The notes: generated from the sequence alone by a model not told the origin. Counted from the first letter of the stretch, positions 19,822-47,815 are shown. The stretch: 64,000 bases of DNA from an uncultured Chloroflexia bacterium (GCA_963829295.1 CAWHHU010000003.1:360157-424156), one strand, 5' to 3'. A program made the numbers and translations.

Positions 19822-19828
19822 GCTGGCC

Positions 19829-23142: not shown

Positions 23143-23219
23143 TGGTGGGCGATACTGGACTCGAACCAGTGACCTCATGCATGTCAAGCATGCGCTCTAA
23201 CCAGCTGAGCTAATCGCCC
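23143..23219 (-). tRNA. tRNA-Val (anticodon GAC), CCA encoded
   Basis: The minus strand reads GGGCGATTAGCTCAGCTGGTTAGAGCGCATGCTTGACATGCATGAGGTCACTGGTTCGAGTCCAGTATCGCCCACCA. This gives a cloverleaf with a 7-bp acceptor stem, anticodon stem CATGC/GCATG and loop TTGACAT. Confidence 0.9.
23179..23219. repeat. attL core: 41-nt direct repeat, equal to tRNA-Val nt 1-41
   Basis: Identical to 47769..47815 apart from a 6-nt CTCTAA duplication in the distal copy. Confidence 0.8.
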
Positions 23220-23350: not shown

Positions 23351-24337
23351 ATGACCGGTCAAGCGGCCAAGGCCGCGATTGTAGCAACCGAGGGCGACCT
23401 CGGCGCCAACCTCGCCCGCTTCCGGCGCAGCCTGCGCGCCGAGAACGTCAGCCCCAACACGCTCCTCGCCTACGGTGGCGCGGTCGAGCGGCTCGCCGGC
23501 TACCTGACGGCCGAGGCAATGCCGACCGATGTTGGCGCCATTCGCCGCGAGCACATCGAGGCGTTCATCGCGGACGCGCTCGAGCGCTTCAAGCCCGCGA
23601 CCGCCAACCACCGCTTCCGCGGCGTCCAGCGCTTCTTCAACTACCTCGTCGATGAGGGCGAGCTGGCGGCGTCGCCAATGGCCCGGATGCGGCCGCCGCG
23701 CATTCCCGACGACCCGCCCGCGGTCCTGTCCCGGGCCGACCAGGCGCGCCTGCTCACGGCCTGCGAGGGCGCCGACTTCGAGGCGCGGCGCGACCGGGCG
23801 ATCATCAGCGTGTTCCTTGATACCGGGGCCCGTCGGGCCGAGGTGGCCGGTCTGCGCTGGACGCCCGCGGATGACGCGACCAACGACGCCGACCTCGACG
23901 GTCGCGCGATCAGGGTCCTCGGCAAGGGCCGGCGCGAACGGCTGGTCAGGATCGGCCACAAGACCGTCAAGGACCTCGATCGCTACCTCGCCCTGCGGGC
24001 GCGCCACCCGCAGGCGCACCTGGCCGCCCTGTGGATTGGTCGCCGCGGCGCGCTGACCGACTCGGGCATCGGGCAGCTCGTCCAGGAGCGGGGCCGGGCG
24101 GCCGGGCTCGGCGACAACCTCCATCCGCATCAGCTGCGGCACACCTTCGCCCATGAATGGTTGGCGGCCGGCGGAAACGAGGGCGATCTCATGCGGCTCG
24201 CGGGCTGGCGCTCGCGAGCGATGCTCCAGCGCTACGCGGCGTCGACCGCCCAGGACCGCGCGCTCGCTGCCCACGATCGGATCTCAGCCCAAGGATCGCC
24301 TCTGAGGAGACTTGGTCGCTCCGGCCCCGGAACTTAA
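23351..24337 (+). CDS. int: Tyrosine recombinase / phage-type integrase (XerC/XerD-like)
   Basis: N-terminal SAM-like core-binding domain. Catalytic R...HxxR...Y ([28 protein letters not shown]). Confidence 0.9.
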
Positions 24338-26269: not shown

Positions 26270-27291
26270 GGGCCTGTGGCCGAATTCTCCCGTTCGGATC
26301 GGCCTGTTGTGACGCCTGAGCTGTCACCGCGGCTCGGCAGACTGCGGGCATGGCGTTCGCGATCGCTCTCTCCGACGAGCAGTGGGAGCTGGTGGCGGAC
26401 CTGTTCGATCCGCCCCGCCGACGCGGTGCGCCGGCCGTGATCCCGCGGCGCCAGATGGTCGACGCGATGCTGTTCATCGGGCGGACCGGGATCCAGTGGC
26501 GCTACCTGCCCGAGCGCTACGGGTCCTGGACCGCCGTCTGGGCCCAGTGGCGCCGCTGGCGCGCCAACGGGGTGTGGGCGGCGGCGATGACGAGGCTCGT
26601 CGCGGTCGTGCGCCGGTTTCACGAGCGCGAGCCGATCCCGTCGATGGTGATGGTCGACGCCCAGACCGTGAAGGGCGCCCGCTACGGGCCGACGTTCCAT
26701 GCGGCCGGCGGCCGGGGTGGCCGGACGATCGCACCAAGCGCACGCTGCTCGTCGAGATCCTGGGCCTGCCTGTCGCCGCGGCGGCCTGCTCGGCCCGGCC
26801 GCATGACGTGGTCGCTGGCCGGGAGCTCCTGCGCGAGCGGATCGACACCCTGCCGCGCCTCCGGGCGATCGTCGGCGACCGTGCCTATCGCGGCCTGGCC
26901 AAGCTCGCTGCCCGCAAGCGGCTCGCGCTCGACATCAAGGCGCCGCCGCCGGGTGCCAGCGGCTTCACCCCGCTGTGGCCGCTGTACAAGGTCGAGCACG
27001 CGATCGCCCAGCCCGGTCGCTGGCGCCGGCTGTCGCGCTGCGACGAGGGCAGCGAGGCGTCCGCCCGGGCGTGGCTCGAGGTCGCCTCGGTCGGCTATCT
27101 CGCCTGGCGCGCCTCGATCTGACCGCACCATCCCATCAGCCCCGGTGCGCGGTCACCTCCACCTGCTCCCGGCCTTGGCACCGACGCCCCACGGCTCACG
27201 CACGCGCGGCTTCGGGGCTTGGTCTCCATGCGTCCAGGACCCAGCCGGTCGCGAGGCTGCCAGCTGGCGTTCCCGAATTCGGCCACAGGCC
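26270..27291. mobile_element. IS5-family (IS427-group-like) insertion sequence, 1022 bp, perfect 18-bp terminal IRs, 3-bp TAA target-site duplication
   Basis: IR-L GGGCCTGTGGCCGAATTC (26270-26287) and IR-R GAATTCGGCCACAGGCCC (27274-27291). Both ends are flanked by TAA (26267-26269 and 27292-27294). Confidence 0.85.
26350..27122 (+). CDS. IS5-family transposase (DDE) in two frames joined by a -1 frameshift (programmed or mutational)
   Basis: Frame A (26350-~26720) has LSDEQWELVADLFDPP....IPRRQMVDAMLFIGRTGIQWRYLPERYGSWTAVWAQWRRWRANGVW...VMVDAQTVKGARYGPTFHAAGG. Frame B (~26700-27122) has DDRTKRTLLVEILGLPVAAAACSARPHDVV...IVGDRAYRG, which is the DDE core. Confidence 0.75.
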
Positions 27292-27742
27292 CTAAGCAAT
27301 TCCGCCGCCCGCTGCCGTGGCGCTGGGCCCGGAGGCGAACGCACTCGACCTCGGCGAGGTCTCGGGACGCGGCGACGTGGACCCGTCGTCGCGCTCGGGC
27401 AAACCAGCCCGGCTCCGTGCGCCGGTCCCTCGAGCGTCCGGGCCAGCAAGTGATCTGCCTGGTTGACATGCGACGGCCGTCGTCGCTCGCAGCGTCAGGC
27501 GGCGCTCGACCGTCGCTTGGCTGGCGCCGCGCAGCGGTTCGGCATCAGGCGACTCGGCCCGGTCGCTCTGGTGTAGGCCCCTGGGCGGCATGGAATCGCA
27601 GAGCGAAGTCGCGTTTCGGGACAGGCCGCTGCCACGCACGTCGCCTGGTCGTGCCGATCGTCGCGAACGGGTCGTGACCAGGTCGCGGCTATCGGTCCTG
27701 GACGCGCCGGGGACGCGACCGTCCGCGCGACACGCGCCCGGC

Positions 27743-28684
27743 TCACTCGACGAACCGCGCCAGCGCCGGGATCGTCGCGAACACGCGCTCGTCGAGCCCG
27801 TCGAGCCCGTCGGGCTCAGCCAGGTGGCCCGGCGTGCGCAGGGGCCACGGATCGCCCGTCCAGTGCGGCGCAAGCTCCGAGGTCCGGGCTCGGTCGCCGA
27901 CGGGTGACGTCCAGATCGCGTGGAGCGGATCGACCGCCAGGGTCGGCTCAGCGATGAGCCAGACGTGAATGGGCTCGCTCGGGTGGTCGCCCCGGGCGAT
28001 CAGCCGCCCGAGCGATGAAGCCCGGCGCGGCGAGTCGACAACGATCCCGACATGGACCGGCAGCTCGTCGCGCTGGCGCGCCAGGGCCGAGCGGTAGCGG
28101 CGGACCTTCTCCGGCAGGACGGCGCCGCGCTCGGTGCCGAGGTCGCGCTCGACGAACAGGACGATCGAGCGCCCGCCAACGCGGATGACGGCGAATGCGT
28201 CCGGCCGGAGCCAGCCGCCGAACAGACGCAGACAGGCGCGCTCGGGCACCCAGGCCGCGATCCCGGTCTCTGACCCAAGATCGGCCGCTCGCAGGAACGC
28301 TGCCAGCAGGTCGTGCGTGGCCAGCCCGTGGATGACGGGCGAGGTGACCTCGACGCCTCCGTCGAGCCGCGGCCGGCCGGAGGGCCAGACCAGCCGCTCG
28401 AGCCCGACGCGGGCGGTCTTGGTCAGCGCGTACGCGTAGCGGCCGCGCGGGCGCTGGCGGTTGGCGGCCCAGCCGCCCGACACCAGGCTGTACTCGGCGA
28501 GCCGAGCGAGCCTGCGCTGGGCGATCCGCCGATGGCCGTAGGCGAGCAGCGCCGCGAGCTCGGCAGTGATCACGTCACCGCCTAGGAGCCACAGCAGGAC
28601 CGCCCGGTCGCGCTCGGGAAGCGCGCTCCAGCCGGCGAGCCCCGGGGCGCTCCGGAGCGGGACGACCCGTGCTGTCGTCCTCAC
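27743..28684 (-). CDS. Replication-relaxation family protein (Replic_Relax-like, HTH N-terminus)
   Basis: LPERDRAVLLWLLGGDVITAELAALLAYGHRRIAQRRLARLAEYSLV resembles the Replic_Relax N-terminal wHTH motif (...RHRLAVLHRLGLV..). 313 aa. Confidence 0.65.
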   Translation of the reverse strand: MRTTARVVPLRSAPGLAGWSALPERDRAVLLWLLGGDVITAELAALLAYGHRRIAQRRLARLAEYSLVSGGWAANRQRPRGRYAYALTKTARVGLERLVWPSGRPRLDGGVEVTSPVIHGLATHDLLAAFLRAADLGSETGIAAWVPERACLRLFGGWLRPDAFAVIRVGGRSIVLFVERDLGTERGAVLPEKVRRYRSALARQRDELPVHVGIVVDSPRRASSLGRLIARGDHPSEPIHVWLIAEPTLAVDPLHAIWTSPVGDRARTSELAPHWTGDPWPLRTPGHLAEPDGLDGLDERVFATIPALARFVE

Positions 28685-29166
28685 GTGCGGCCCTGGCGGC
28701 GTGCCGACCGCGTCCGGCGCGCACGCGCCGAGAGATAGGCGAGCCGCGCGAAATGGGCCGACCGGGCATGGGCAGCGCGGCGCGCCCGCTCCGCCGGCGG
28801 AAGGGCGCCGTCGGGGTCCACAAGTCGCTCAAAGCTGGCGAGGAACGCGGCTCGGCCTGCGGCCGAGGTCTCGCGCGGGTCGTGCGTCGCGTGGAGGCGG
28901 TAGGCGCCGATCCGGCCGCGCAGCGAGCGCTCCGCCCGGCTCGGGCCGTCGTGTGCACCGTCGCGCCGTGCCCGGGTCACGCCGGCGCCTCGTGGATCTC
29001 CTCGTCGCCCCCGTCGCCAAGAACGCCCAGCCAGGCGTCGGTTGCGACTGGCGTCGGGCAGGAGTACGGCGTCGGATCGGTGAGGAGGTCGCCGAGCGCC
29101 GTCCGGTGGCCGCCGGGGAACAAGCAGAGGATCCGCAGGCACGTTCGGTCGCGGGTGCGGAGGCAC
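28681..29166 (-). CDS. Hypothetical small protein, real start probably internal, overlapping a diverged repeat
   Basis: The ORF overlaps the upstream gene's start. The C-terminal ~80 aa look protein-like and the N-terminus is R/P-rich. Confidence 0.2.
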   Translation of the reverse strand: MPPHPRPNVPADPLLVPRRPPDGARRPPHRSDAVLLPDASRNRRLAGRSWRRGRRGDPRGAGVTRARRDGAHDGPSRAERSLRGRIGAYRLHATHDPRETSAAGRAAFLASFERLVDPDGALPPAERARRAAHARSAHFARLAYLSARARRTRSARRQGRT

Positions 29167-29408
29167 CCCGGATGAATGACCAGCAGGCGATCACATGCGG
29201 GAGCGGACACAAACGAACCGATCACCCGTATGGGGTCCCGCGTCGAAGGTGCGCCGAGCACACACGGACCGCGCGGCAGCAGTGGGGCACGCAAGACCCC
29301 ACGGCGCGACCGATCCATCGACCGACCAAACGCGTGTTTGGCGCCGTTCCGGACGATCGCGTTGTTCCGTTTGTGCAACGTCCCGCGTTTCCCAATTCAG
29401 GGCGACCT

Positions 29409-30496
29409 CAACCAGGGGCTTCATCGACCCTCGATTTCGAGGGCGGCCCAGTCCCATCTCCTCTCCGGCGGCACGGCCATGAACCCCGGAGCCACCGATC
29501 GATCCACGCCGCCGTCGCGAGGGGACGGAGCCTTCCGATCGACCGGCCGGCCGCCGGGCCGCACGGTCACGGCGCCGGCCTCGAGGGTGACGACCCGCCA
29601 CGGCGTCTGCGACCGGCAGGGCGACGGCCCCGACCCTGATTGACACGGCGGACGGCTTGCGCTGGCAGCCATGGTTCCGCCGAGACGTCGAGCGGGCGGT
29701 CGACCGCCGAGGTCAGCCGCCGGCTTCGACCCTAGCCACTTCGGCCGTCGCAGGGAACCCGGATTCCGTGCAAGATTCTGTGTATTGTCAGCTCCGCTAC
29801 GTCCCGATTGACACCCAGAATTACGTGTGCGACGCTCCCATCGTGCTCAAGACGAAGCGGACGTACAACCTCAGCCGGCGGACGATCGAGACGGTTCAGG
29901 CGCTCGCGGAGCGGAAGGTCGCGCCGACCCAGGACGCCCTCGTCGAGCTCGCCGTCGACGAGCTCGCCCGCCATGTCCGCGAGACCGACGAAGCGGCCGC
30001 CTGGGCGGGCGCGGCCACCGATCCGGACTTTGTCGCCGAGGCCGCCGAGCTCGAGGCGGCATATGGCGACGCCGACCCGGCCACGTGGCCGAGACCGTAG
30101 GGCTGCCAGCGCTCCGCTGGGCCGTCGTGATCGTCGGACTCGATCCGGTGGAGGGTCACGAGCAGGCCGGTGAGCGGCGGGCGCTGGTCGTGAGCTATGA
30201 GGCGTTCCACCGCTCGGGGCTGCTGACCGTGTGTCCGATCAGCGCCGCCCGCGAGAAGCCGCGCTATCCGGGCGAGGTCGCGATCCCGGCCGGCGAAGGT
30301 GGCCAGACGAAGTCCGGGCTCATCCTGTGCGCCCAGGTCCGGACGATCTCGGTCCGTCGGATCCGGGCGACCGGCATCCTGCCCGGTGGCGGCGTCGCCC
30401 ACCTCACCGACGCCCGGATCCGCTCGGCGGTGCGAGCGGCCCTTCGACACCACCTCGGGCTCGATATCCCAGCCCAGTCGGACGGGGCGGCGAGCG
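29409..30496. repeat. Copy A of a duplicated 1088-bp segment (operator region + RHH antitoxin + MazF toxin)
   Basis: Identical to 40277..41228 except for a 136-bp deletion in copy B. Diverged (~78%) homology extends left, with 28985-29140 matching 39360-39515. Confidence 0.85.
29843..30100 (+). CDS. Ribbon-helix-helix type antitoxin, cognate to the downstream MazF
   Basis: VLKTKRTYNLSRRTIETVQALAERKVAPTQDALVELAV... is an RHH DNA-binding N-terminus with an acidic C-terminal tail. It is located just upstream of the toxin and overlaps it by 16 nt. Confidence 0.5.
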   Translation: MLKTKRTYNLSRRTIETVQALAERKVAPTQDALVELAVDELARHVRETDEAAAWAGAATDPDFVAEAAELEAAYGDADPATWPRP

Positions 30497-30507
30497 GTAG
30501 TGCGTGA
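30085..30507 (+). CDS. mazF: MazF/PemK-family endoribonuclease toxin
   Basis: GLDPVEGHEQAGERRALVVSYEAFHRSGLLTVCPISAAR....SGLILCAQVRTISVRRI matches the PemK/MazF signature (G.EQ.G.RP.lVvS...........P.T.......V.......gl...S..lc.Q.Rt.s..R.). Confidence 0.8.
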   Translation: MAETVGLPALRWAVVIVGLDPVEGHEQAGERRALVVSYEAFHRSGLLTVCPISAAREKPRYPGEVAIPAGEGGQTKSGLILCAQVRTISVRRIRATGILPGGGVAHLTDARIRSAVRAALRHHLGLDIPAQSDGAASGSA

Positions 30508-30578
30508 AGCGCTTCACGCCATCGCGGGTGCCGTCCCCGGTGCACCAACATCGGAGACCACGCAAGGACTCCGTAGGC

Positions 30579-33200
30579 CTACTCGCCGCGAAGCGAGGCG
30601 GCCGGAAGCTCCCGATAGACGTGGGCGAGGGGCACCAGCGCGGCCAGCGTGGTGGCAAGGACAGCGCTCAGGAGCGCGAGCCCGAGGCTCACCGCGAATG
30701 CTATGGGCATGACCCTGAGCACTAGCCCGATCGCCCCGACGATCAGCGTCGCTCCGGTGCCGCCTATGCATCCGATCACGATCGCTTGGATCGTGACAAC
30801 GGTCGCGACAGCCCGCCGTGGCCAGCCCAGGGCGCGAAGCGCCCCGAACTCCGCCTGCCGCTCGACATAGCCGAGGGTGACGATCTCTGCGACGGCCAGC
30901 GCTCCGATCACCAGTGTGACCAACGCAACCACGAAGTTGAACGTTCGTGCGCGGGCAGCGATGTGAACGCCGAGCAACGTGGTGTCCAGCTGCCCCGCGA
31001 ACCCGGCAGCCACGAGCGTGGAGCCGCCGACGAGCACCGCGCCGAGGCCAATGGTCACCGCGCCGAGCAGCGCCTCGGTGCGCCGGCTGCCAAGTACCTC
31101 CCTGAGCCCGAGCCCGGGAACAGACGTGACTCGTCGGACCCGTTCCGGGCCTGTACGCATGGCGCGACCGGCTGACGCCCGTGACGACGCGAGAGCCGGA
31201 ACCAACCCGGCCACCCCCGAGATCGCGAGTGCCAGGGGCACCACGGCTGCAAGCTGCCACGGCTCGATCCGGAGCGCAAGGGCGGCCTGCAACGCAGTGG
31301 CGGCCACCAACCCGATCACGGCGACCACCGCGCCCAGGAGCAGGACCTCGATCTCAACGAGGGCTCCGACACGCCATGCGGGCCAGCCCAGGGCGCGCAG
31401 GACGCCAAACTCGGCAACTCGACGCCGACTGGCCAGGTAGGCCGTCGCTGCCACCAGCACCGTGGCAGCGATCAGCACGACGATCAGGATTGCCAGATCC
31501 TGGGTCGCGAGTGCCTGCGCGAAGCGGATCGCCACCCCCTTGACGGACCATTGCTCGGAGACCGTCAGGGCGGGCCGGCCGAAGTCACCGGCTGGCAGGT
31601 CGACGACCACATGGCGGGGCGACGACCCGGCGACGATGTCGACATCGAGCCCGGTCGCGTCGTGGATGTCGGCGGCCACCTGAGCGAGCCGATCCTGGGC
31701 CTCTTGCCCCGGGTTTTCCGTTCCCGCCACGCGGACGCGGATGGCGCTGATGAATGCCGCACCGGCGGCGCCATCGTAGCGAGATGGATCGGCAAGCCAG
31801 GCTGCCGTCTGGAGCGAGACCAGGATGAGTGGCGGGCTGGTCACGTACGACGCCGGAGACCGGGTCGCGCCGAGCTGCCGGCCATCCGCCACCTGAACGG
31901 CCGGCAGTGAATAGGTCTCGAGTCGCCCGCCTGCCAGGATGTCGAAGCCTGGCACGCAGTCAGGGTTGAACTGACCGATAGGGTCCCAGCGGCTGAACAC
32001 TTCCGACCGGCGCTGCTGGTCATGGCGCACCACCGGCCGGAACCAGGTGTCAGTGGACTCGGGCGGGACGTGGGTCGCGCCGCCCGGGGTGATGGTCACG
32101 CTGGACTCATAGATCGAGGGATCGGTCGGTTGAGCATGGGCGGCGAGGTGATCGGGGCCGAGCAGGTCGTAGCTGACGTCGCCGATCGACCACAGCGGTG
32201 ACGTGTCGTAGAACGATCCGCTGTTGAGGGTCGGCAGGAACGCGCGATACGCGTCGTTTGCGCTCGCCGTGCGGCTGTCGACCGGTTGCCACCCCGAGAG
32301 GGTGTCGACACCGTCCTTGGCGAGCACCTCCGGATTCGCCGCGCGCTCGATCGTCATCGTGAGCGTCTCGTCGAGGAACGAGCGGTCGCTGACGAGGACC
32401 GGCAGGACAGGCTGTGGGCCGGCGGGCGAGCTGACCTCTGTCGGCACGTCGGACGCCTGGAGATAGCGACCCTGGGTCACGCACCGGTCGAGGTCGACGA
32501 GGCTGGCCTCCGCAACCGGATCGATGCCGGCGATGACGAACGGCTCCGGGAAGTTCACGAAGGCGCCCGCTGTCCCTGCCGGCAAGCCGCGGACCGGGAG
32601 TGCGTCGGGCGTCTGACCACCAAAGCAGGTGACCGTCGCGTCGCAGGCGATCTCCAGATCACCGACCTCGAGGTGGGCCGCCCCGACCGCGCTGCGCACG
32701 ACCCGGCCCTGGGGCGCGATCACCAGGTAGCCAGCAGGCTCCGGCGGATACCGACTCAGCCCGGCCTCCGCGGTGATGCTGGTCGTGATCCGAAGAACCG
32801 TGACTCCTGTGCCGTCGGCGAGCGACGAGAGATCCACCGGAATGCCGGCCGGCCATTGCACGAAGCCGGCGACCGCGATCGGCGCGGCGACCTCGACCTC
32901 GGGGACCGCGCGGATGCTCGCGAGCTGCGCCTCGGTGATCCCGCCGTACAGGCCGGAGATGGCATTGGGTCTGACCAGGCCCTGCGCCTGCTCGAGTGCG
33001 GTCGCCGACCCCACCGGGCGAACGAGCAGCTGATACGGTCCGCCCCATGCTCGGGTGATGTCGCCTGTCACGCTCGCCTGCGTCGTGCGGGTCGTCCCGG
33101 CCATCAACACGAACCCAATGACCGCGGTGGCCAGGCCAGCTGTTGCGAGGAGGGTGGCGAATCGCCGGGAAGTGATTTCCTGAACTGCGAGCCTGAGCAT
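30579..33200 (-). CDS. ABC transporter permease with two FtsX domains (MacB-like, 873 aa)
   Basis: N-terminal TM, large extracytoplasmic domain, FtsX TM bundle, second ECD, second FtsX bundle. Immediately downstream of the ABC ATPase. Confidence 0.85.
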   Translation of the reverse strand: MLRLAVQEITSRRFATLLATAGLATAVIGFVLMAGTTRTTQASVTGDITRAWGGPYQLLVRPVGSATALEQAQGLVRPNAISGLYGGITEAQLASIRAVPEVEVAAPIAVAGFVQWPAGIPVDLSSLADGTGVTVLRITTSITAEAGLSRYPPEPAGYLVIAPQGRVVRSAVGAAHLEVGDLEIACDATVTCFGGQTPDALPVRGLPAGTAGAFVNFPEPFVIAGIDPVAEASLVDLDRCVTQGRYLQASDVPTEVSSPAGPQPVLPVLVSDRSFLDETLTMTIERAANPEVLAKDGVDTLSGWQPVDSRTASANDAYRAFLPTLNSGSFYDTSPLWSIGDVSYDLLGPDHLAAHAQPTDPSIYESSVTITPGGATHVPPESTDTWFRPVVRHDQQRRSEVFSRWDPIGQFNPDCVPGFDILAGGRLETYSLPAVQVADGRQLGATRSPASYVTSPPLILVSLQTAAWLADPSRYDGAAGAAFISAIRVRVAGTENPGQEAQDRLAQVAADIHDATGLDVDIVAGSSPRHVVVDLPAGDFGRPALTVSEQWSVKGVAIRFAQALATQDLAILIVVLIAATVLVAATAYLASRRRVAEFGVLRALGWPAWRVGALVEIEVLLLGAVVAVIGLVAATALQAALALRIEPWQLAAVVPLALAISGVAGLVPALASSRASAGRAMRTGPERVRRVTSVPGLGLREVLGSRRTEALLGAVTIGLGAVLVGGSTLVAAGFAGQLDTTLLGVHIAARARTFNFVVALVTLVIGALAVAEIVTLGYVERQAEFGALRALGWPRRAVATVVTIQAIVIGCIGGTGATLIVGAIGLVLRVMPIAFAVSLGLALLSAVLATTLAALVPLAHVYRELPAASLRGE

Positions 33201-33208
33201 CGACGCGG

Positions 33209-33940
33209 CTACTCCGCGTCCAGAACATTGACCACGCCGGGCAGGCCTTCGTCCAGGCGCTCGTCGCTGGTCAGGCGTCCGCTCACCAGGTGCAGCACGC
33301 GATCCGCAGCCGCGGCGACCGCGGGATCGTGGGTGGCGACGACGACCGTCAGGTCACTCTCCTCTCGGAGTTGATCGAGATAGGCCATGAACTCGGTGGT
33401 TCGGTCTGCATCAAGGTTCCCGGTTGGCTCGTCAGCGAGCAGCAGCGCGGGCGCACCCACCATCGCGCGTGCCAGCGAGACCCGCTGGCGCTCGCCACCG
33501 GACAGTCGAGCCGGCGGGAAATCGGTCCGATCGGCCAACCCAAGGGAGGCGAGAAGCGTGCGAGCGCGCGGTTCAAGGCTGCGGCGAGACTCCCACGGCA
33601 AGCGTGCGGCGATGACGTTGTCAAGGGCGCTGAGCCCTGGGAGGAGAAACGGCTCCTGGAACACCAGGCCCATGAGCCTGGCACGGAGCGCCGTGCGTTC
33701 GCGGTCGCTGGCGGCGTCCATCGCTTCGCCCAGAACCTTGACGGTTCCGTGGGTCGGTAGATCGAGCCCAGCGATGAGGTTGAGGAGGGTGGTCTTGCCT
33801 GAGCCCGATGGGCCTGTGATGGCAACCGCCTGACCCTGTTGCACCTCAAGGGTGACGTCCAGCAGGGCGGCCACCTCGGTTGGCCCGACCTGATAGACCC
33901 GGGAGAGTGCCTGGAGCTCGATGGCCGGCAGCAGGCGCAT
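33209..33940 (-). CDS. ABC transporter ATP-binding protein (MacB/LolD-type)
   Basis: Walker A GPSGSGKTTLLN. Signature LSGGERQRVSLARA. Walker B LLLADEPTGNLD. H-loop. Start MRLLPAIELQ at 33940. Confidence 0.9.
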   Translation of the reverse strand: MRLLPAIELQALSRVYQVGPTEVAALLDVTLEVQQGQAVAITGPSGSGKTTLLNLIAGLDLPTHGTVKVLGEAMDAASDRERTALRARLMGLVFQEPFLLPGLSALDNVIAARLPWESRRSLEPRARTLLASLGLADRTDFPPARLSGGERQRVSLARAMVGAPALLLADEPTGNLDADRTTEFMAYLDQLREESDLTVVVATHDPAVAAAADRVLHLVSGRLTSDERLDEGLPGVVNVLDAE

Positions 33941-34497
33941 CAGGCGAGCTTGGCGGACCTCGTGCCCACTCGCCTGCGCGCCCGAGTGCGCGCCACGACC
34001 GCCGATGACGTGTCGTGGATATGGGTGGCCCACCGAAGGTCGGCTTCAGTACGCCGGATCTCGCGGTCGAGGGCGGATTGACCAAAGCCTTCGTCCCCGG
34101 GAATTCCACGTCGGGCGGCTCGAAGCCGATGCAGCTCAACCGTGCGCTCACGGACGACGGTCTCGGCGAGCGCGTCAAATCGATCGGGAATGGCGAGCCT
34201 CGCAACAGCCAGACGCACGACGATCTCGTCGGCCGTGCTCGGTTCCCAGAGCCAGGCCTCTGCAACACGACGACCAGCAGGTGTCAGCGTGAGGAGGTGG
34301 CGATCGGGCCGGCTCACCTGACGGACTCGGCGGGGATCGACCAGCCCATCGCGCTCCATGCGCCCGAGCGTGAGATAGACCTGACTGGTGCGGGTCGACC
34401 AGAGGGGGCCGAGCTCGGCCTCGAGCGTGATCACGAGCTCATAGCCATAGGAGGGTCCCACGAGGAGAAGTGCGGCGATTGCCCCATGCAGGTTCAT
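33940..34497 (-). CDS. PadR-family transcriptional regulator
   Basis: GYELVITLEAELGPLWSTRTSQVYLTLGRMERDGLV is a PadR winged-HTH. It is followed by a C-terminal helical domain. Confidence 0.8.
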   Translation of the reverse strand: MNLHGAIAALLLVGPSYGYELVITLEAELGPLWSTRTSQVYLTLGRMERDGLVDPRRVRQVSRPDRHLLTLTPAGRRVAEAWLWEPSTADEIVVRLAVARLAIPDRFDALAETVVRERTVELHRLRAARRGIPGDEGFGQSALDREIRRTEADLRWATHIHDTSSAVVARTRARRRVGTRSAKLA

Positions 34498-34847
34498 GCT
34501 CGGGCGGTCATCCGGTGGCCCGCAGAGGAGAGCATGGCCAACACCCGAGACAACCCGGCGCCAAGTTGCTGGTCGGCAATTCGACCATCGCGCACCAGGA
34601 ACGTATGCGGAGTGGCCTGCGCCCCGAAGTCGTCTCGCACCCTCCCCTCCCGATCGGTCACACAGGAGGCACCAGGGATTCGGACCAGCTCAGCGAGTGA
34701 GCCATCATTTGGCGTCTCCGGCTCGATTACGATAATCGGCCAGTCTTCTGGCACCACTGCCTCATTGAGCCCTGCCAACAGGTCGCGACAGGGTCGGCGA
34801 TCGAGGTGAGAGGCCACCACGTCGGTCACATTGCCCATTCTGTTCAC
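34494..34847 (-). CDS. Thioredoxin-fold TlpA/MauD-like protein lacking the CXXC motif (degenerate paralogue of 37879..38412)
   Basis: ...TPHTFLVRDGRIADQQLG aligns with ...SPFAIHVRDGVVRAKGV of the MauD-like protein. Only PCRD sits where CGIC is expected. The ORF overlaps the padR start by 4 nt. Confidence 0.45.
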   Translation of the reverse strand: MNRMGNVTDVVASHLDRRPCRDLLAGLNEAVVPEDWPIIVIEPETPNDGSLAELVRIPGASCVTDREGRVRDDFGAQATPHTFLVRDGRIADQQLGAGLSRVLAMLSSAGHRMTARA

Positions 34848-34926
34848 GAAACCCGCCTCCTGATACTCTACTGTAGATTATTCTTCAGTCGTCAAGAGCA
34901 CGCGGGCAGACCTCTTTGGGACCCTG

Positions 34927-35212
34927 GTGGACGTCTGGCAACTCTTCGCTCGGGCCTTCTACATCTCGCTCCTCGTCCTGTCAGTGCGCGTCAAGACACG
35001 AATGATTGAGGTCGCCGAGGTCACCTTGGCCGTCGGCCCTCGTGCTTGTCCGAGGGGCCGTTCCATGGATCGAAACGATCGCGATGTTCGGTGTGTTTTC
35101 GGTGGCTCAGGCCTGGAGTTGGAGGAGAGGCGGAACCCACGGCTGTCATTGCTTCGGCGCAGATGAAATCATCGGGGTGTCACCCTGGGGGGCAGCCTAC
35201 CTCTGGCACTGA
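34927..35212 (+). pseudogene. MauE/DoxX-like membrane protein remnant (frameshifted)
   Basis: IAMFGVFSVAQAWSWRRGGTHGCHCFGADE matches AALFIGFAVVQAFMARRHPGLRCGCYGQLDE of the MauE-like protein at 38415..38906, including the C-x-C-(F/Y)-G motif. The N-terminal portion lies in a different frame (34927 versus 35006). Confidence 0.4.
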
Positions 35213-35539
35213 TCGCGATCGGCACGGTCGTGCTCACACACCGGTGCTCGATCGGCCGGTTGACACCTCCGACGGTCCGTTGTCGTGTCTTTGGCGTCTC
35301 CGCGGTCGACAGCCGCGACCACGTCGCGACCGGTGCGCATTCCGGGGAATCCGATCGCCCATTCCGGGGTTTTCGATCACCCTCGGTCGGAGGCCGCGGA
35401 GCGGCCGACACGAGGGCTGGTTCAGCCCCTGATGGTCACCTCCTCTCGATGGTCTGCGGGTAGTCTGGCACGCCGCCCGTGGTGGACGACGGTGTCGACG
35501 CGTCCGGGGCCGGTGCGACCCCGGCTGGGTCGTCGGGAG

Positions 35540-35732
35540 CCTTGACCGTCCGGCGGCTCGAGTCGCCCTTGAGCTCCAGCCCGTAGGCGTTGTGGACCAG
35601 GCGGTCGAGGATCGCGTCGGCGACGGTGGGCTCGCCCAAGGCCTCGTGCCAGTGCCCGACCGGGAGCCGGCTCGTGACGATGGTCGAGCGCAGGCCTCCG
35701 CGATCCTCGATCACCTCCAGCAGGTCGGCCGC
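35540..35732 (-). pseudogene. IS21-family IstB-like helper ATPase C-terminal fragment
   Basis: ...TSRLPVGHWHEALGEPTVADAILDRLVHNAYGLELKGDSSRR matches the IstB C-terminal signature (TSN...EW.E.FGD...A.AILDRL.HH.....I.GESYR). There is no upstream ATPase core. Confidence 0.45.
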
Positions 35733-36058
35733 CCGGGCGGGAGGCACCGGGGAGAGCCGATCCCGATCAGCGACCCGTGAACGGGCGAGATCCGGGCGGC
35801 GCAGCTGTTCGTGGCGGTGATCGGCGCGTCTTCGTACACGTACGCCGAGGCGACGCCGTCCCAGGAGCTGCCCCACTGGCCTGGGCGCCTTCAAGAAGCG
35901 TGCACGCCGTGGCCAGGGCTGGCCGCTCGCGCGCCGAAGCAGAGCCGAACATCGAAGAGGCTGCGCTCCCCGCCGGCATCATCCCGGGAGGGCTTGAGAA
36001 TGGTCCAGCGAGGAACAGGTGCCGAGCATCCCCTTGCGGCCCAGCGCTGCGCTGCCTG

Positions 36059-36697
36059 TCAGCCAGGTGGGACCTTGTCTCGACCCCCAGTCGAGGGGAC
36101 CCCGGTAACCAAGAAGACATCAACTATCGAGAAGCCGATACCGTCAACTTGGTACGCGAAGCAGCCTGGACCCCCTACCAATGTAAGAGACGGCCATGTT
36201 CGTTCGACGCCAGGGGTCCCTGGAGGGAAGAGGAGTTCGCCGGCTGCCGGCTGGCCGCTCAAGATGAAGGTCACGGAGCCTGGTATGTCGAGTTGAGCTC
36301 CTCGGATCTGAATTGGCCCGGCATACTGAGCCGCAGCAAACCACAGAACCTTGATCTGATAGAGCGAACCAGAGCGCGCTCCAAGGGGTTGGCTTCCCTC
36401 GTTGCCGAACCCAACGGGATACACCGGGCCGACGCCCAGCGCAGGTCCGACGCTCGGCGAGACATCGCTCCCGGTGGAGACCGGGCAGTCATCAAGAGCC
36501 CGATGCAGAGTTAGCAGCCGATTGGGGATCGACGTCAGGTTCGTGTTGCCCGCGCTAGACCCGAGAATTGCACTGGCACCTCCGGACGCGACTAACGTGG
36601 CAAGGATCCCGAGGATGACGATGGCGGTCGCGACAAGAATGCCGACGCGCTGCGTGGAAAGGATCGTATGCAGGCGCGGCGGGCTCGGGCTGCGCAT
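36059..36697 (-). CDS. Membrane-anchored extracytoplasmic hypothetical protein
   Basis: N-terminal signal-anchor ([24 protein letters not shown]) then a ~170-aa domain. Low-GC region. No recognisable family. Confidence 0.4.
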
Positions 36698-36720
36698 GGG
36701 ATCAGACGACGACGGGACCA

Positions 36721-37284
36721 TTAAATCGATCGGGCAATGACGAGCCAAGCCAGGAAGAGCATGGCGAGATCGAGCATCCGAAACAACCTCCACCGCCCAG
36801 TGAAGGCCATTGCTACGCGCGCTGGATCCGTGCGGGTCGACAGGAGGCCAACAAGGAGGGGGACCCATCGTCCTACTCCATATGCGACAGCGGAGAACCC
36901 TGCTAGGTCACCACGCCCAGTCAGCCACCCGATGACGAGAGTCGCCAGCCAGGCGCCATAGGGTGCTTTGGTAGCCAACCCCGTTCCAAGAAAGATCCCA
37001 TATCTCGTGGCGCCGAGCAAAGGGCGCTCACGCATCCATCCTCGTGGCACCTGCCAGCCAGACTGGGGTACCCGGTGCATGAGGCTTGCCAAGAACAAGA
37101 TGCTGACGGCGACAAGCGCGGCGACCGGCCACCATGCAGATCGAGGCGTTACTATACCAATCGCACCGACAGCGACAAATACCGATCCCGCACCGACCAA
37201 TAGCCCACCCAAGTGCAAGATACTTGCTGCTACAACTCTAGGTAGTGATGCCACCTCGACCAGGGGCCTGATCGTCATGATCAT
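36721..37284 (-). CDS. Polytopic membrane protein (4-6 TM, Cys-free), hypothetical
   Basis: Hydrophobic helices throughout. Downstream of the Cys-rich gene, low GC. Confidence 0.45.
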   Translation of the reverse strand: MIMTIRPLVEVASLPRVVAASILHLGGLLVGAGSVFVAVGAIGIVTPRSAWWPVAALVAVSILFLASLMHRVPQSGWQVPRGWMRERPLLGATRYGIFLGTGLATKAPYGAWLATLVIGWLTGRGDLAGFSAVAYGVGRWVPLLVGLLSTRTDPARVAMAFTGRWRLFRMLDLAMLFLAWLVIARSI

Positions 37285-37370
37285 GTTGGCCCCTCACGGC
37301 AACGAGCCGGTCGACACCCCCGCAAATAGCGCAAGCATCACCGCCGTCTCGCCAACGTCCATCGGCGCCC

Positions 37371-37877
37371 TCAGCAGTTTGGATTAACCCCGGTCAGCTT
37401 CCGATCCCTTGGCTGGACAAATACCGGTGAGTCCGGCACGCCCCTTGGGAGGGCATGATTGTCACGATACGCGCAGCCACACGCGTATGTATTGCACGCG
37501 CCTGCTGGGCACCAACAATCACAGCAGTACCAAAGAACGCCATAACAGACAGCAGACCAACAGTTGCCTGGACTCCAGTATTCCGTGTCCGGATAGCACC
37601 CGCCCTGACACGAAGATCCGCTCGATGAACACTTGCTCGACGGGCAATTCACTCCTCCCGGAGGGCTACAGCAGGCAATCGCCTCAACGTCCAGAACGCC
37701 CAAGGCACCTTCGGCCAGTGACGCCGCCGTCGCCGCGAATACGAACTGGAGACCCCTCCGCAAGAGCTGTCTACGATTGCGCCGACGCGCGAACTCCTCC
37801 GCAGCAAGGCCGAATGATCCGGGCTGTGCTTCCCGATCGAACTCCAGTCTGGGCGAGTTCGGATCATCTCCTGTCAT
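37371..37877 (-). CDS. Tat-signal, cysteine-rich (16 Cys, 4 Trp) small secreted protein with local MauA-like (methylamine dehydrogenase light chain) motifs
   Basis: ATG at 37877 has a strong SD (GAGGAGGG) and lies 1 nt after the MauD-like stop. The ~60-aa leader carries RRRNRRQLLRRGLQFVFAATAASLA (twin-arginine). The mature region is IACCSPPGGVNCPSSKCSSSGSSCQGGCYPDTEYWSPGNCWSAVCYGVLWYCCDCWCPAGACNTYACGCAYRDNH. Compare MauA ICDCSGGSLTNCPPGT...ASW57VASCY...YRDCCG. Confidence 0.6.
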   Translation of the reverse strand: MTGDDPNSPRLEFDREAQPGSFGLAAEEFARRRNRRQLLRRGLQFVFAATAASLAEGALGVLDVEAIACCSPPGGVNCPSSKCSSSGSSCQGGCYPDTEYWSPGNCWSAVCYGVLWYCCDCWCPAGACNTYACGCAYRDNHALPRGVPDSPVFVQPRDRKLTGVNPNC

Positions 37878-37878
37878 A

Positions 37879-38412
37879 TCAGCCCTCCTCAGAGCGGGGG
37901 TGTTCCAGGTTCTCAATCCGGAATAGGTCAATCGCGTGGTTTACGACGCCCTTGGCCCTAACCACCCCATCTCTGACATGTATCGCAAAGGGGCTCACTC
38001 GAACCCGAAGCCTCGAGGCCAGATCAGAATCCGTACCGGCAGCCTCCAATCCAGATGCAGCTGCCCAGTAGGGAAGAGCGCCGCCGTCGGTCTGTACGAG
38101 CAGGTGAAGACCAAGGTGGTCAATCTCTTGGCGCTCGAAAGTGCCAAGCTCTTCGATCAAGCTCTCGCAGATCCCGCAGCCGTTCAGACCGAACAACAAG
38201 AGGTGGTTGCCGCTAGAAACATCGATGCTGCCGTCATGTACACGGACTTGATCAAGGCTCGTGCCCACTCGTGGACCATCGCGCGTCGTTGCGCCCCGCG
38301 TGCGCAGATACAGATGACCGAGCTCTCGGTACAGCGACAGCAGTAGCACAAGAATAGCGACGACCACGAGCCAAAGCAGGACGTAGCTGGCGACAAAGAA
38401 ACCTCCGCTCAT
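37879..38412 (-). CDS. MauD-like membrane-anchored thioredoxin-fold thiol-disulfide oxidoreductase (CGIC active site)
   Basis: N-terminal TM anchor, then LLLFGLNGCGICESL (CXXC) and the thioredoxin fold. Located between the MauE-like gene and the Cys-rich gene. Confidence 0.6.
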   Translation of the reverse strand: MSGGFFVASYVLLWLVVVAILVLLLSLYRELGHLYLRTRGATTRDGPRVGTSLDQVRVHDGSIDVSSGNHLLLFGLNGCGICESLIEELGTFERQEIDHLGLHLLVQTDGGALPYWAAASGLEAAGTDSDLASRLRVRVSPFAIHVRDGVVRAKGVVNHAIDLFRIENLEHPRSEEG

Positions 38413-38414
38413 GG

Positions 38415-38906
38415 TCAGGCTACTTCGTAGAAGTGACGCACAGCGCCAAGAATCAGGGCACCAAGCGGAATGATCGCGCCAGCAATGCGAATGGTAATCG
38501 CATCAGCCATGGCTTCTTCTGGAAGCGACTGCCGGCCGAAGCTCAGCCAGATGAGTAGCAACCCCAGAGAGAGGAAGACAACGGCGTGCACGTACGAGTA
38601 CGTGGCAGCTTCGTCCAATTGTCCGTAGCACCCGCAGCGCAGCCCGGGATGGCGGCGCGCCATGAACGCTTGTACGACAGCAAATCCGATGAAGAGCGCC
38701 GCCGCCGGCACCGCAAACGGCTGTGGGCCGAGCAACAGCAGGCCGGCGAAGACCTCAGCGAGGACGAGAGTCCCAATCAGCGTTGCGCGACGTCGGTCCG
38801 TTGGCCACGCGACGTCCGCCGTCCCACGCATCAACTTGCCTGCAGCGGCCCCGAGAAGGATCCAACCCCCGCCAAATGCGGCGACCCAGTAGAGGCTCGA
38901 ATCCAT
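38415..38906 (-). CDS. MauE/DoxX-family membrane protein
   Basis: A 4-TM, ~160-aa protein with RCGCYG in TM3, as in methylamine-utilisation MauE-like proteins. Its stop lies 2 nt before the MauD-like start. Confidence 0.55.
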   Translation of the reverse strand: MDSSLYWVAAFGGGWILLGAAAGKLMRGTADVAWPTDRRRATLIGTLVLAEVFAGLLLLGPQPFAVPAAALFIGFAVVQAFMARRHPGLRCGCYGQLDEAATYSYVHAVVFLSLGLLLIWLSFGRQSLPEEAMADAITIRIAGAIIPLGALILGAVRHFYEVA

Positions 38907-39352
38907 AGACGCCTCACCCCCACTTCCTTCGCGAGCATTATCGGCGTCGGTGTCAAGGGTCCGAGGTAATCAAGTGCAAGGACGATCGGCCAATCGACCG
39001 TGATGTTCGGCGCGAGATCCTCAGGCCCAGTAGGTCACGATGGCCGCGGGGAGGCGGATCTGAAAGGCTCACAGCCTCACACTTGATAGCGGGGTCCGCG
39101 AGGCACGCCACGCCAGCGAGCTCGAGCGGCGCGGATCGCCTGAGTTGACCGGAGATTGGCGGCCCGCTTCAGCAACTCCCCGTCGGGAAGGTCGGGATGC
39201 AGGCGGCGGGCCTCGACGATGAACCGATCACCAGCTGCCGCCCTCGCGGCCGCGGTCGCGGCCGTTCGATCGCGCACCCGCGCCCCAGCGTTCGTGGGCC
39301 GCGAGCCGTGCGATCGTGGCTCGACAGAGGGAGTGGCGCGGCTTCGATCCGC

Positions 39353-40120
39353 TCACCGGAGCGCCTCGTCACGCTCCTCGTCGCCGCCCTCACCGAGCAG
39401 GTGTAGCCACCCCTCGGTGGCACCTGGCGTCGGACAATGCCGCGGCATCGGATGGGCAAGGAGGTCGCCGAGCGCCGACCGGTGGCCGCCGGGGAACAGC
39501 GGCCCGATGCTGGTCCCGAGCCCTGCCCTCCGGAGCTCGCCGAGCCCGAGCGCCCAGGCCCGACCGGCGAGCTCAGGGTGACCGCCGTCCCGCCGGACGA
39601 CCCGGGCGAGGAAGCCGACCCGCTCTCGACCCGGAGCCACGAACAGGACATGCGAGCCCTGCCGGCGAGCGCGGTGGCGTAGCGGGCGAGCTTGTCGCGG
39701 CTGTCGGGTCGGTGCTCGGTGCCCTCGTCGATCTCGAGGCACAGGACGCCCGACGCCGTCGACTCCCGCAGGACGACGATGCTGGCGGGGTAGACGCCGG
39801 CGAGGAGTTGGGTCGCGTTGCCCTCCGGGTGCTAGAGCTGGACGATCGGTTCGGCGGTGGGCTCCGAGCGGACGAGGGCGCAGATGCTCTCGACGACGTT
39901 GAGCGAGTGGCCCAGTTGCGTGCCGGCGCGGAAATGGGTGAGCGACTTGTGGCCGAGACTTGTAGCCGAGACGGCGGCGACCGCGGGCCGAGACGCGGAA
40001 GGCGAGCGACGCACAACCGCGCGTCTGTGGTGGGAGGACGGCGCGATCGACGTAGCCGAGGCGGTGGAGGACCGCGAGACGCTGCTGGGCGGTCTGCCGG
40101 CGGCGGTTGACGAGGGTCAC
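39353..40120 (-). pseudogene. Replication-relaxation family pseudogene (paralogue of 27743..28684; frameshifts and internal stop)
   Basis: The N-terminus QRLAVLHRLGYVDRAVL is the Replic_Relax HTH. Homology to copy A continues in a second frame (LNVVESICALV..PASIVVLRES...EIDEGTEH...KLARYATALAGR) through a TAG at 39832-39834. Confidence 0.5.
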
Positions 40121-40276
40121 AAGCTGAGCGGTCGTGGCAACGTCGCAGCGGCAGAGAATCCGCGGGCGGGCCCGGTCACGGGTGCGGAGGCACCCCGGAT
40201 CGATGACTAGCCGGCGATCACATGCGGGAGCGGATCATGACGAGGCCCAGATCTCGCACGCGTTCGAGGACATGCT

Positions 40277-41228
40277 CAACCAGGGGCTTCATCGACCCTC
40301 GATTTCGAGGGCGGCCCAGTCCCATCTCCTCTCCGGCGGCACGGCCATGAACCCCGGAGCCACCGATCGATCCACGCCGCCGTCGCGAGGGGACGGAGCC
40401 TTCCGATCGACCGGCCGGCCGCCGGGCCGCACGGTCACGGCGCCGGCCTCGAGGGTGACGACCCGCCACGGCGTCTGCGACCGGCAGGGCGACGGCCCCG
40501 ACCCTGATTGACACGGCGGACGGCTTGCGCTGGCAGCCATGGTTCCGCCGAGACGTCGAGCGGGCGGTCGACCGCCGAGGTCAGCCGCCGGCTTCGACCC
40601 TAGCCACTTCGGCCGTCGCAGGGAACCCGGATTCCGTGCAAGATTCTGTGTATTGTCAGCTCCGCTACGTCCCGATTGACACCCACGATGACGTGTGCAA
40701 CGCTCCCATCGTGCTCAAGACGAAGCGGCCGCCTGGGCGGGCGCGGCCACCGATCCCGACTTTGTCGGCGAGGCCGCCGAGCTCGAGGCGGCATATGGCG
40801 ACGCCGAGCCGGCCACGTGGCCGAGACCGTAGGGCTGCCAGCGCTCCGCTGGGCCGTCGTGATCGTCGGACTCGATCCGGTGGAGGGTCACGAGCAGGCC
40901 GGTGAGCGGCGGGCGCTGGTCGTGAGCTATGAGGCGTTCCACCGCTCGGGGCTGCTGACCGTGTGTCCGATCAGCGCCGCCCGCGAGAAGCCGCGCTATC
41001 CGGGCGAGGTCGCGATCCCGGCCGGCGAAGGTGGCCAGACGAAGTCCGGGCTCATCCTGTGCGCCCAGGTCCGGACGATCTCGGTCCGTCGGATCCGGGC
41101 GACCGGCATCCTGCCCGGTGGCGGCGTCGCCCACCTCACCGACGCCCGGATCCGCTCGGCGGTGCGAGCGGCCCTCCGACACCACCTCGGGCTCGATATC
41201 CCAGCCCAGTCGGACGGGGCGGCGAGCG
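40277..41228. repeat. Copy B of the duplicated TA segment, with an internal 136-bp deletion
   Basis: Identical to 29409..30496 minus the 136 bp between two GACGAAGCGG direct repeats (A: 29851-29860 and 29987-29996). Confidence 0.85.
40711..40832 (+). pseudogene. RHH antitoxin remnant (RHH domain deleted, downstream frame shifted)
   Basis: VLKTKR is followed directly by the post-deletion sequence. The 136-nt deletion is not a multiple of 3. Confidence 0.5.
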
Positions 41229-41353
41229 CGATAGGGGTTGACCTGGCGCAGCGCGAAGACGGGACCGTCACGAAGCCCGAGCGACCCGAGGGTGAAGCCA
41301 TGACGCCGTCGCCCGGCGTGTCAGACGACCGGCAGCCAACAGAAAGGAGGTGA
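40817..41353 (+). CDS. mazF: MazF/PemK-family toxin, copy 2 (intact core, divergent C-terminus)
   Basis: Identical to copy A through ...DIPAQSDGAAS, then a different 40-aa tail. Confidence 0.7.
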   Translation: MAETVGLPALRWAVVIVGLDPVEGHEQAGERRALVVSYEAFHRSGLLTVCPISAAREKPRYPGEVAIPAGEGGQTKSGLILCAQVRTISVRRIRATGILPGGGVAHLTDARIRSAVRAALRHHLGLDIPAQSDGAASAIGVDLAQREDGTVTKPERPEGEAMTPSPGVSDDRQPTERR

Positions 41354-41811
41354 TCGTCAGGGGGTGAAGAGCGCCCAGGTGTCAGGCGCTGCGCGGCCTC
41401 CGACGCCGAGTGATCGAAAACTCCAGACTGACTGATCACTTTCGCCGGGATACGCATCATCGTCCAGTCCCGCTGAGTCGCTGCCGTGGCTGGCACACGG
41501 CGGAGTAGGTGTCAGCGGGATCTCCCGTCCGTTGTCCGTTTGGGAAGGAGATTTTCCCACGCGATTTGACGAGGGCTCGGCTCCACGGCGCAGTCATCGG
41601 TGTGGGCGGCGGCGCTCCTCGAGCCGTCGGCCGACGACGCGACCCGTCCCCGATCTCGTGGCGCCCATCGCGGTTCGCGACCTCGTCAACCCTGCCGCGT
41701 TTCGGGGCGGCCGTCCGGACCGAGCTCGAGGCGACGCGCGGGTGCTCTGGTGGAACGTCTTGCCCGTGCCCGTTACCTCCGGCTCGTTCTGACGCCTCGG
41801 TCGCTGATGGC

Positions 41812-47768: not shown

Positions 47769-47815
47769 GCATGTCAAGCATGCGCTCTAACTCTAACCAG
47801 CTGAGCTAATCGCCC
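47769..47815. repeat. attR core: 5' 41 nt of tRNA-Val with a 6-nt CTCTAA internal duplication (tRNA fragment, non-functional)
   Basis: GCATGTCAAGCATGCGCTCTAAC[TCTAAC]CAGCTGAGCTAATCGCCC matches 23179..23219. There is no D/T-arm completion and no 3' half. Confidence 0.8.

Follow-up and report, generated by a model that had tools for sequence, protein, structure and literature searches.

Toxin–antitoxin (TA) loci that have lost one of their partners are well described. Partial systems are common and are mostly remnants of degraded canonical ones; orphan partners, and homologous antitoxins that neutralise the toxin of another copy, belong to the same body of observations (PMC7354431). Among pairs composed of a ribbon-helix-helix (RHH) type MazE and a MazF toxin, the closest known systems are those with solved structures, namely Bacillus subtilis EndoAI/EndoA (4ME7) and Mycobacterium tuberculosis MazEF4 (5XE3) and MazEF9 (6KYT). 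The present work examines a stretch of 64,000 nucleotides from an uncultured Chloroflexia bacterium (GCA_963829295.1 CAWHHU010000003.1:360157-424156; hereafter the window), in which two modules encoding such a pair, termed copy A and copy B, lie in a single island at a tRNA-Val gene. Copy A is a complete antitoxin–toxin pair; in copy B the open reading frame (ORF) of the toxin is intact and the antitoxin is destroyed. More likely than not, these are two paralogous modules in one mosaic island, both decaying, with copy B a remnant sheltered by copy A rather than a separately functioning system. The same joint reading holds, with equal probability, that the module is typical of small tRNA-integrating elements of Limnocylindria-type Chloroflexota, in which a Replic_Relax-family gene is divergent from a leaderless operon for an RHH-MazE-like antitoxin and a MazF toxin.

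The two copies are related through a near-identical tract of about 1 kb. Comparison of the window with itself by BLAST recovered both of its blocks: 29407-29863 pairs with 40275-40731 (98.9% identity), and 29987-30496 pairs with 40719-41228 (99.2%). The offsets of the two blocks are 10868 and 10732; copy B is shorter by their difference, 136 bp. The decamer GACGAAGCGG occurs twice in copy A (29851-29860 and 29987-29996) and once in copy B (40719-40728), a pattern characteristic of the loss of a segment between short direct repeats. The deletion takes codons 7-51 of the 85 antitoxin codons, that is, the entire DNA-binding strand-helix-helix part, together with one further base; since 136 is not a multiple of three, the frame of antitoxin B is shifted. 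Block offsets and repeat positions thus bear out the first-pass description of a 136-bp loss, flanked by direct repeats, that removes the RHH part and shifts the frame.

The same description had the two segments identical apart from the gap, which does not hold. Over 952 aligned bp they differ at eight further positions: 29818, 29819, 29822 and 29831; 30025, 30036 and 30076; and 30444, a synonymous change in the toxin gene. Seven of the eight fall within 123 aligned bp around the junction (binomial, 4e-6), and at its left end the tract has 411 bp of non-coding DNA in which A and B agree at every base. Metagenome contigs were also scanned for the junction sequence GTGCTCAAGACGAAGCGGCCGC; two contigs matched, both by chance in unrelated genes coding for 'VLKTKRP', and no independent copy of the junction was found among them.

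Both toxins are members of the MazF/PemK family. They score 67.4 bits (toxin A) and 66.5 bits (toxin B) against PF02452, with a cut-off of 23.1 (both ~1e-18), and the NCBIfam ChpB and MazF models match them below their equivalog cut-offs. More than 1,600 relatives are detectable, nearly all the close ones being 138 amino acids long, and at 1e-12 to 1e-8 the family profile matches structures solved for MazF, Kid and EndoA. The two proteins have the same sequence up to '...SDGAAS'; toxin A then ends with GSA*, and toxin B continues through 41 foreign codons. In a 20-member alignment, conservation stops at '...LGLDIPxxSDGAA'. As the tract boundary (30496 / 41228) lies just past this motif, the whole conserved core is present in both toxins, and all invariant family positions are retained in toxin B. 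Judged from the alignment, the conserved catalytic-type Arg and Thr/Ser positions are present in both: R31 is invariant in the family, and S53 aligns with the Thr of 'ITA' in solved MazF. We take R31 to correspond to R29 of the Escherichia coli protein and R25 of the B. subtilis protein, and S53 to T52 and T48, respectively. The earlier claim that copy B has an intact MazF core with a different C-terminal tail is therefore sound, with 137 identical residues and the catalytic-type positions kept ahead of divergent tails. In the public record, the 140-aa and 178-aa toxins are annotated on one contig of 945,607 nt.

The antitoxin is less readily classified. It has 179 detectable relatives, most of 85-86 aa, with the N-terminus M(L/R)KTKRTYNLS; conservation of this N-terminus fixes the start of the copy A gene at the GTG at 29843. 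Searches gave no Pfam hit at 0.01, no NCBIfam match and no PDB sequence match, and thus no membership of a curated RHH or antitoxin family; Pfam domains are absent from all 120 listed homologues, and 8 of 50 homologues give PSK_trans_fac hits below threshold. An AlphaFold2 model built from 50 homologues (pLDDT 88) has an extended N-terminus followed by helices at residues 12-23, 30-59 and 61-74, and its Foldseek matches are of RHH type, below significance. 'RHH-type MazE-like' is accordingly used here as a working description that leans on the predicted fold. The adjacent, overlapping antitoxin–toxin layout of type II TA systems is found in copy A, with an overlap of 16 nt, and is broken in copy B. 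Hints to the predicted neutralisation and autoregulation come from the conserved C-terminal segment of the antitoxin and from conserved inverted boxes near the −35 element.

These boxes are part of a remarkably uniform arrangement upstream of the operon. In about 70 related loci (among L005-L086 of the survey described below), TTGACA is separated by 17 nt from the hexamer nAnnnT, and the antitoxin start codon comes 6 nt after that; inverted GACAC/GTGTC and CACGTCC/GGACGTG boxes surround the −35 element. Such a layout points to a leaderless mazE mRNA with an operator that overlaps the −35 element and the spacer. Copy B keeps the promoter geometry (40676-40713), and the A/B substitutions at 29818, 29819, 29822 and 29831 fall in the spacer and the first base of the −10 hexamer. 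The beginning of the toxin gene is similarly constrained. In 16 loci the toxin start lies within the conserved Thr-Trp-Pro codons of the antitoxin (30085-30100 in the window), and the antitoxin stop follows 10-13 nt downstream; none of the 16 has a Shine-Dalgarno-like motif at −4 to −15 of the toxin start. Toxin translation therefore probably needs ribosomes that are completing the antitoxin. In copy B, the frameshifted ORF that begins at the native antitoxin start extends past the toxin start and terminates 88 nt into the toxin ORF, so that coupling should be lost and little toxin B made.

How the two copies came to share the tract is best seen from the DNA to its left. Two pairs of remnants of a Replic_Relax-like gene align there between the copies, 28985-29122 with 39361-39498 at 77.5% identity and 29124-29207 with 40151-40234 at 86.9%; the more diverged (~78%) homology noted at first sight further left is thus real. 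It is also what undoes the first-pass view of a duplicated replication-relaxation plus TA module, because 78-87% in these remnants stands against 99% over the TA stretch. Duplication of a whole module followed by divergence cannot yield such a contrast, least of all with 411 unchanged non-coding bp. On the left, the tract begins at the copy B filler; on the right, it ends just short of the toxin stop, where homology to all other elements ends as well. With a heterology at either edge, the tract fills the entire homologous block available. When the A/B differences are judged against six outgroups, A-derived and B-derived states are mixed, so the differences are not simply new mutations in B, and their clustering at the junction suggests that the deletion was already present at the time of copying. 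Most likely, therefore, a recent event of gene conversion, or another form of patch copying, transferred the ~1-kb TA tract between two paralogous modules that had diverged before. Conversion would have proceeded in two stretches, each stopping short of the pre-existing 136-bp heterology.

The module's own Replic_Relax-like gene can be recognised through relatives in which it is intact. On a 730-kb metagenome-assembled genome (MAG) contig, L005, the order is a Replic_Relax-family gene (297 aa, minus strand), an intergenic region of ~540 bp, antitoxin, MazF, a 261-aa gene, integrase and tRNA-Leu; the core of Replic_Relax-like gene, antitoxin and MazF is common to L001, L005, L007 and L009. Copy A and L005 run collinear all the way from where the Replic_Relax-like gene begins to where the toxin ends, save for ~650 bp missing from that gene in copy A: the remnant there has residues 1-33 fused in frame to 247-294. 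In copy B, ~180 bp of the intergenic DNA of copy A and L005 is gone and replaced by the filler, and the Replic_Relax-like gene is a pseudogene. Its alignment with four intact orthologues reveals a missing start, a 13-bp tandem duplication, a TGG>TAG nonsense codon, and deletions of 3 bp and 4 bp. The orthologues carry PF13814; the pseudogene, taken as a single ORF, gives no Pfam hit. A single pseudogene ORF at 39353-40120 was considered and rejected, the middle being out of frame and the true end lying at 40234. The first reading of this interval as a frameshifted pseudogene was thus right as to the frameshift and too short in extent, and it had missed the lost start and the nonsense codon.

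This picture is complicated by a second Replic_Relax gene, RR313, next to copy A. The first-pass annotation had called it an intact Replic_Relax gene, and it does match PF13814; it had also been taken for the counterpart of the pseudogene, which it is not. It shares 28-29% amino acid identity with the Replic_Relax-like proteins of L005 and L001, orthologues of the pseudogene, and is hence a distant paralogue of the module's own gene, whose true counterpart in copy A is the remnant at 28977-29225. To the equivalent gene in L087 and L010, RR313 is 75-77% identical. It is accompanied by a small conserved gene, p100, for which no Pfam or NCBIfam match was found; a longer ORF at 28681-29166 (161 aa) was rejected as a gene, since only its last 99 codons are conserved and its 5' end is spurious. 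The pair has the same position elsewhere: L087 reads integrase, Replic_Relax, 100 aa, antitoxin, MazF, and L010 has the same pair. In L010, only residues 202-295 of the Replic_Relax-like gene persist, at 2837-3103, a remnant unlike that in the window. The erosion of this gene has thus been independent in each setting where the other Replic_Relax gene occurs.

Table 1. Features of the two modules and of the island, with positions in the window.
Feature	Position	Strand	Description
tRNA-Val(GAC)	23143-23219	-	ARAGORN; Rfam 72 bits
Tyrosine integrase	23351-24337	+	PF00589, 2e-21; sole integrase in the island
RR313, Replic_Relax gene	27743-28684	-	Intact; PF13814, 7e-19
p100	28681-28980	-	Small conserved 99-aa protein accompanying RR313; 78% aa identity to the 100-aa gene of L087
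Copy A remnant of the module's Replic_Relax-like gene	28977-29225	-	82 codons; tblastn with L005 and L001 proteins, blastn collinearity with L005
Copy A tract	29407-30496	+	Intergenic region, promoter, mazE-like gene, mazF-like gene
Conserved upstream element, copy A	29808-29842	+	TTGACA-N17-GACGCT-N6, ends at the start codon; inferred promoter/operator, leaderless mRNA
Antitoxin A	29843-30100	+	85 aa; RHH-type MazE-like N-terminal part (working description) and conserved C-terminal part
Segment missing from copy B	29861-29996	+	136 bp between GACGAAGCGG direct repeats
Toxin A	30085-30507	+	MazF/PemK family, 140 aa; PF02452, 1.6e-18; start overlaps the antitoxin end
Small ORF downstream of the copy B pseudogene	39077-39277	-	66 aa; region homologous to L005 7981-8254 (blastn)
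Copy B Replic_Relax-like pseudogene	39353-40234	-	tblastn covers residues 7-297
Copy B tract	40275-41228	+	Left border: 40 nt of unrelated filler, 40235-40274
Alternative ORF, copy B	40695-40832	+	45 codons, GTG start; antitoxin residues 49-85 remain in frame, carrying A65G and D78E
Antitoxin B from the native start	40711-40905	+	Six native codons and a frameshifted 58-codon tail
Toxin B	40817-41353	+	178 aa; 137-residue core identical to toxin A, then a 41-codon read-through tail
Inverted sequence at the copy B right edge	41314-41456		75% identical to its partner 35334-35475 (143-nt inverted repeat)
Right direct repeat of the island	47769-47815	-	tRNA-Val 5' half and a 6-nt CTCTAA duplication

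Orphan toxins are rare in this family. The survey covers 80 related genome loci, almost all from Chloroflexota MAGs of Limnocylindria or Chloroflexia. In 76 of them the RHH-coding part lies directly upstream of the toxin, and three of the remaining four loci lie at the ends of their contigs. One true orphan is a solitary 129-aa MazF homologue in L020 (6817-7206), whose neighbour, 115 bp away, is a divergent alpha/beta-hydrolase-like gene; an antitoxin was not detected at this locus. A second case comes closer to copy B. The 10.6-kb contig L001 has a second MazF copy (7461-7967), the 168-aa protein P0101, which is fused to the C-terminal 28 residues of the antitoxin and has no RHH part. Homology to its own paralogue and to copy A of the window sets in at the GACGA(A/G)G that also marks the copy B junction, and several near-invariant toxin residues are altered. 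P0101 appears to represent a more advanced stage of this decay.

In the preferred reading, in which copy B is sheltered by copy A, the identical core makes antitoxin A the cognate partner of toxin B as well. Antitoxin A would bind toxin B and would probably repress promoter B, and neutralisation in trans is plausible. The frameshift would in addition abolish termination–reinitiation coupling, and this loss probably lowers toxin B synthesis. That toxin B must be either neutralised in trans or inactive, as was argued at first, is a reasonable dichotomy, but one that overlooked a third factor, the probable uncoupling of toxin B translation. Several points weigh against the reading. A strict sigma-70 consensus scan and a terminator scan of both copies called nothing, so that the promoter argument rests on conservation across loci. 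Trans-neutralisation, trans-repression and reduced translation are what we infer from the sequence. Identities to A-type (L087, L010) and B-type (L005, L007, L009) elements, at ~72-88%, do not discriminate between directions or times of conversion, and the 41-residue tail could itself inactivate or destabilise toxin B. Toxin B might then be silent, through uncoupling, or inactivated by the tail, in which case neutralisation by copy A would not be needed and copy A would have no extra 'addictive' role. We regard this as rather unlikely, though it has to be taken seriously. The missing Shine-Dalgarno motif and the overrunning ORF fit it, as does a tail of foreign sequence beyond the end of family conservation, and the altered residues of P0101 agree with non-functional, decaying orphans. 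Against it, promoter geometry and toxin start context are unchanged in copy B, all conserved toxin residues are intact, and three family members (P0005, P0009 and P0065) have natural C-terminal extensions of 4-18 residues.

The other alternatives are less probable. Neutralisation in cis by a 'mini-antitoxin', that is, residues 49-85 translated from the alternative GTG-started ORF and lacking autoregulation, is very unlikely. This ORF would keep W54, F63, E66, T81, W82 and P83 and ends at the native stop, so that coupling would persist, and the L001 orphan has independently kept the same segment from GACGA(A/G)G; however, the inferred transcript start falls 16 nt after the GTG at 40695, no Shine-Dalgarno motif precedes that GTG, no in-frame start codon for the C-terminal segment exists downstream of the junction, and the near-invariant D78 has become E. 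A simple recent duplication of the whole Replic_Relax plus TA module with subsequent erosion, as first proposed, would account for Replic_Relax-family sequence to the left of both copies in the same orientation. It is highly improbable given the identity contrast and the unsubstituted non-coding DNA, the more so as the intact Replic_Relax gene is a 28%-identical paralogue and the two arrangements exist separately, that of copy A (RR313, p100 and TA) in L087 and L010 and that of copy B in L005, L007, L009 and L001. Also to be set against the preferred reading is an artefact of assembly or sequencing as the source of the 136-bp difference. The source is probably metagenome-assembled, and the junction scan of public metagenome contigs gave no second instance; yet the copies lie in different unique flanks and differ by clustered substitutions, seven of eight beside the junction, which is itself a clean product of deletion between 10-bp repeats, and together these make an artefact unlikely. 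Long conserved genes of the window such as ThrRS are intact, and the 13-bp duplication and nonsense codon of the pseudogene are not typical read errors. An artefact is therefore scarcely credible.

A bolder extension of the preferred reading would have one antitoxin guarding two identical toxins. Conversion from copy A, following the loss of antitoxin B, would have kept or made toxin B an exact match of the one remaining antitoxin, which would amount to an addiction lock on the island. We consider this unlikely. If it were true, losing copy A, or the 11 kb between the copies by recombination, would release toxin B, which would stabilise the whole island, and the L001 orphan with the same antitoxin C-terminal segment would mean that the arrangement recurs.

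Both copies are contained in a 24.5-kb island delimited by two tRNA-Val repeats, the left one being the 5' half of the tRNA gene itself (23179-23219, 41 nt), as found by self-BLAST and a repeat search. With a Phage_integrase gene adjoining the tRNA gene and tRNA repeats at both ends, it is a tRNA-integrated element of the tyrosine integrase type. The integrase is 42-51% identical to those of the related elements L005, L001 and L087. Neither a third, internal att repeat nor a second integrase between the modules was found within the window. With one integrase and only two repeats, the stacking of two elements in tandem, as the first-pass annotation had it, is possible and is not demonstrated in the window; its view that both copies belong to eroding modules of integrative elements is borne out by the intact relatives and the lesions of the pseudogene. 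In L005, the first 40 nt of tRNA-Leu are present three times (3799-3838, 5198-5238 and 13554-13593) and delimit an 8.3-kb element and a 1.4-kb Fic remnant, indicating tandem accretion. The direct repeats in relatives likewise consist of the tRNA 5' half up to the anticodon loop, with the integrase on the 5' side of the tRNA. The tRNA genes concerned include tRNA-Val in the window, tRNA-Leu(TAG) in L005, L001, L009 and L088, and tRNA-Pro in L007. The usual pattern for tRNA-targeting elements is a 3'-end repeat.

The remaining content of the island is mixed. An apparently frameshift-split IS5-like transposase with a DUF4096 N-terminal domain (26350-27453) sits between the integrase and RR313, an insertion relative to the compact L087. 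The island also holds an ABC transporter with a PadR regulator, an IstB fragment and a MauE-containing cluster. This cluster (36059-38906) comprises five minus-strand genes of lower G+C (~60%, compared with 70% for the window), the first encoding a MauE-family membrane protein and another a Cys-rich protein of 186 aa; L087 has a MauE cluster directly after its MazF, with weak similarity to that of the window. The inverted sequence that probably marks a rearrangement by an insertion sequence (IS) at the right edge of copy B has its other arm at 35334-35475, adjoining the IstB (IS21) C-terminal fragment (35436-35894). The right-hand arm lies 85 bp past copy B, and the two flank the MauE cluster and copy B. 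More speculatively, an old IS-mediated inversion may have left the inverted repeat at 35.4 kb and 41.4 kb as its scar. The 66-aa ORF downstream of the pseudogene gave no family match. Outside the island, a tandem repeat with a period of 21/42 nt (TGCGGTCTGGTCGGTGGCTGC / TTCGGTCTGAACCGCGGCCGT) occupies 19880-20125, inside a minus-strand ORF at 19624-20175.

The decay of a duplicated TA module in a mobile element is an ordinary stage of a kind already known, seen here in a little-studied phylum. The locus is nevertheless a clean natural example, in which a short-repeat deletion, the pseudogenisation of a neighbouring replication gene and the homogenisation of paralogues occur together. A toxin gene can outlive its own antitoxin only if something else keeps the toxin harmless. 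If protection in trans by copy A is true, duplicated TA modules create a dependency between distant parts of an island. Two by-products may outweigh the main finding in use: an undescribed RHH/MazE-like antitoxin family with a tightly conserved, apparently leaderless promoter-operator, and a Limnocylindria family of elements that duplicate the 5' halves of tRNA genes.

Comparison with known systems sets these points in context. As in the degraded type II TA loci on record, one partner is destroyed, the genome also contains a homologous pair that is intact, and the surviving antitoxin is expected to cover both toxins; in contrast to those loci, it is the toxin that survives and not the antitoxin, which is the riskier outcome. 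Cross-neutralisation between homologous TA copies has been described (PMC7354431); the toxins here are identical, most likely through recent homogenisation, and recognition would be cognate rather than cross-reactive. Set beside EndoAI/EndoA, MazEF4 and MazEF9, this antitoxin has no detectable sequence relationship to Pfam, NCBIfam or PDB entries, its operon is apparently leaderless, and its family occurs almost only in Limnocylindria-type Chloroflexota MAGs. The toxin, at 138 aa, is longer than those of these three pairs and has a conserved C-terminal segment, '...RSAVRAALRHHLGLDIPxxSDGAA'. With known tRNA-targeting islands of the tyrosine integrase type, the element shares an integrase beside the tRNA gene, a partial-tRNA direct repeat that bounds the island, and tandem accretion in its relatives. 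It differs from them in taking its repeat from the tRNA's 5' half, in lying to the 5' side of the tRNA, and in having a replication or mobilisation gene of the Replic_Relax family.

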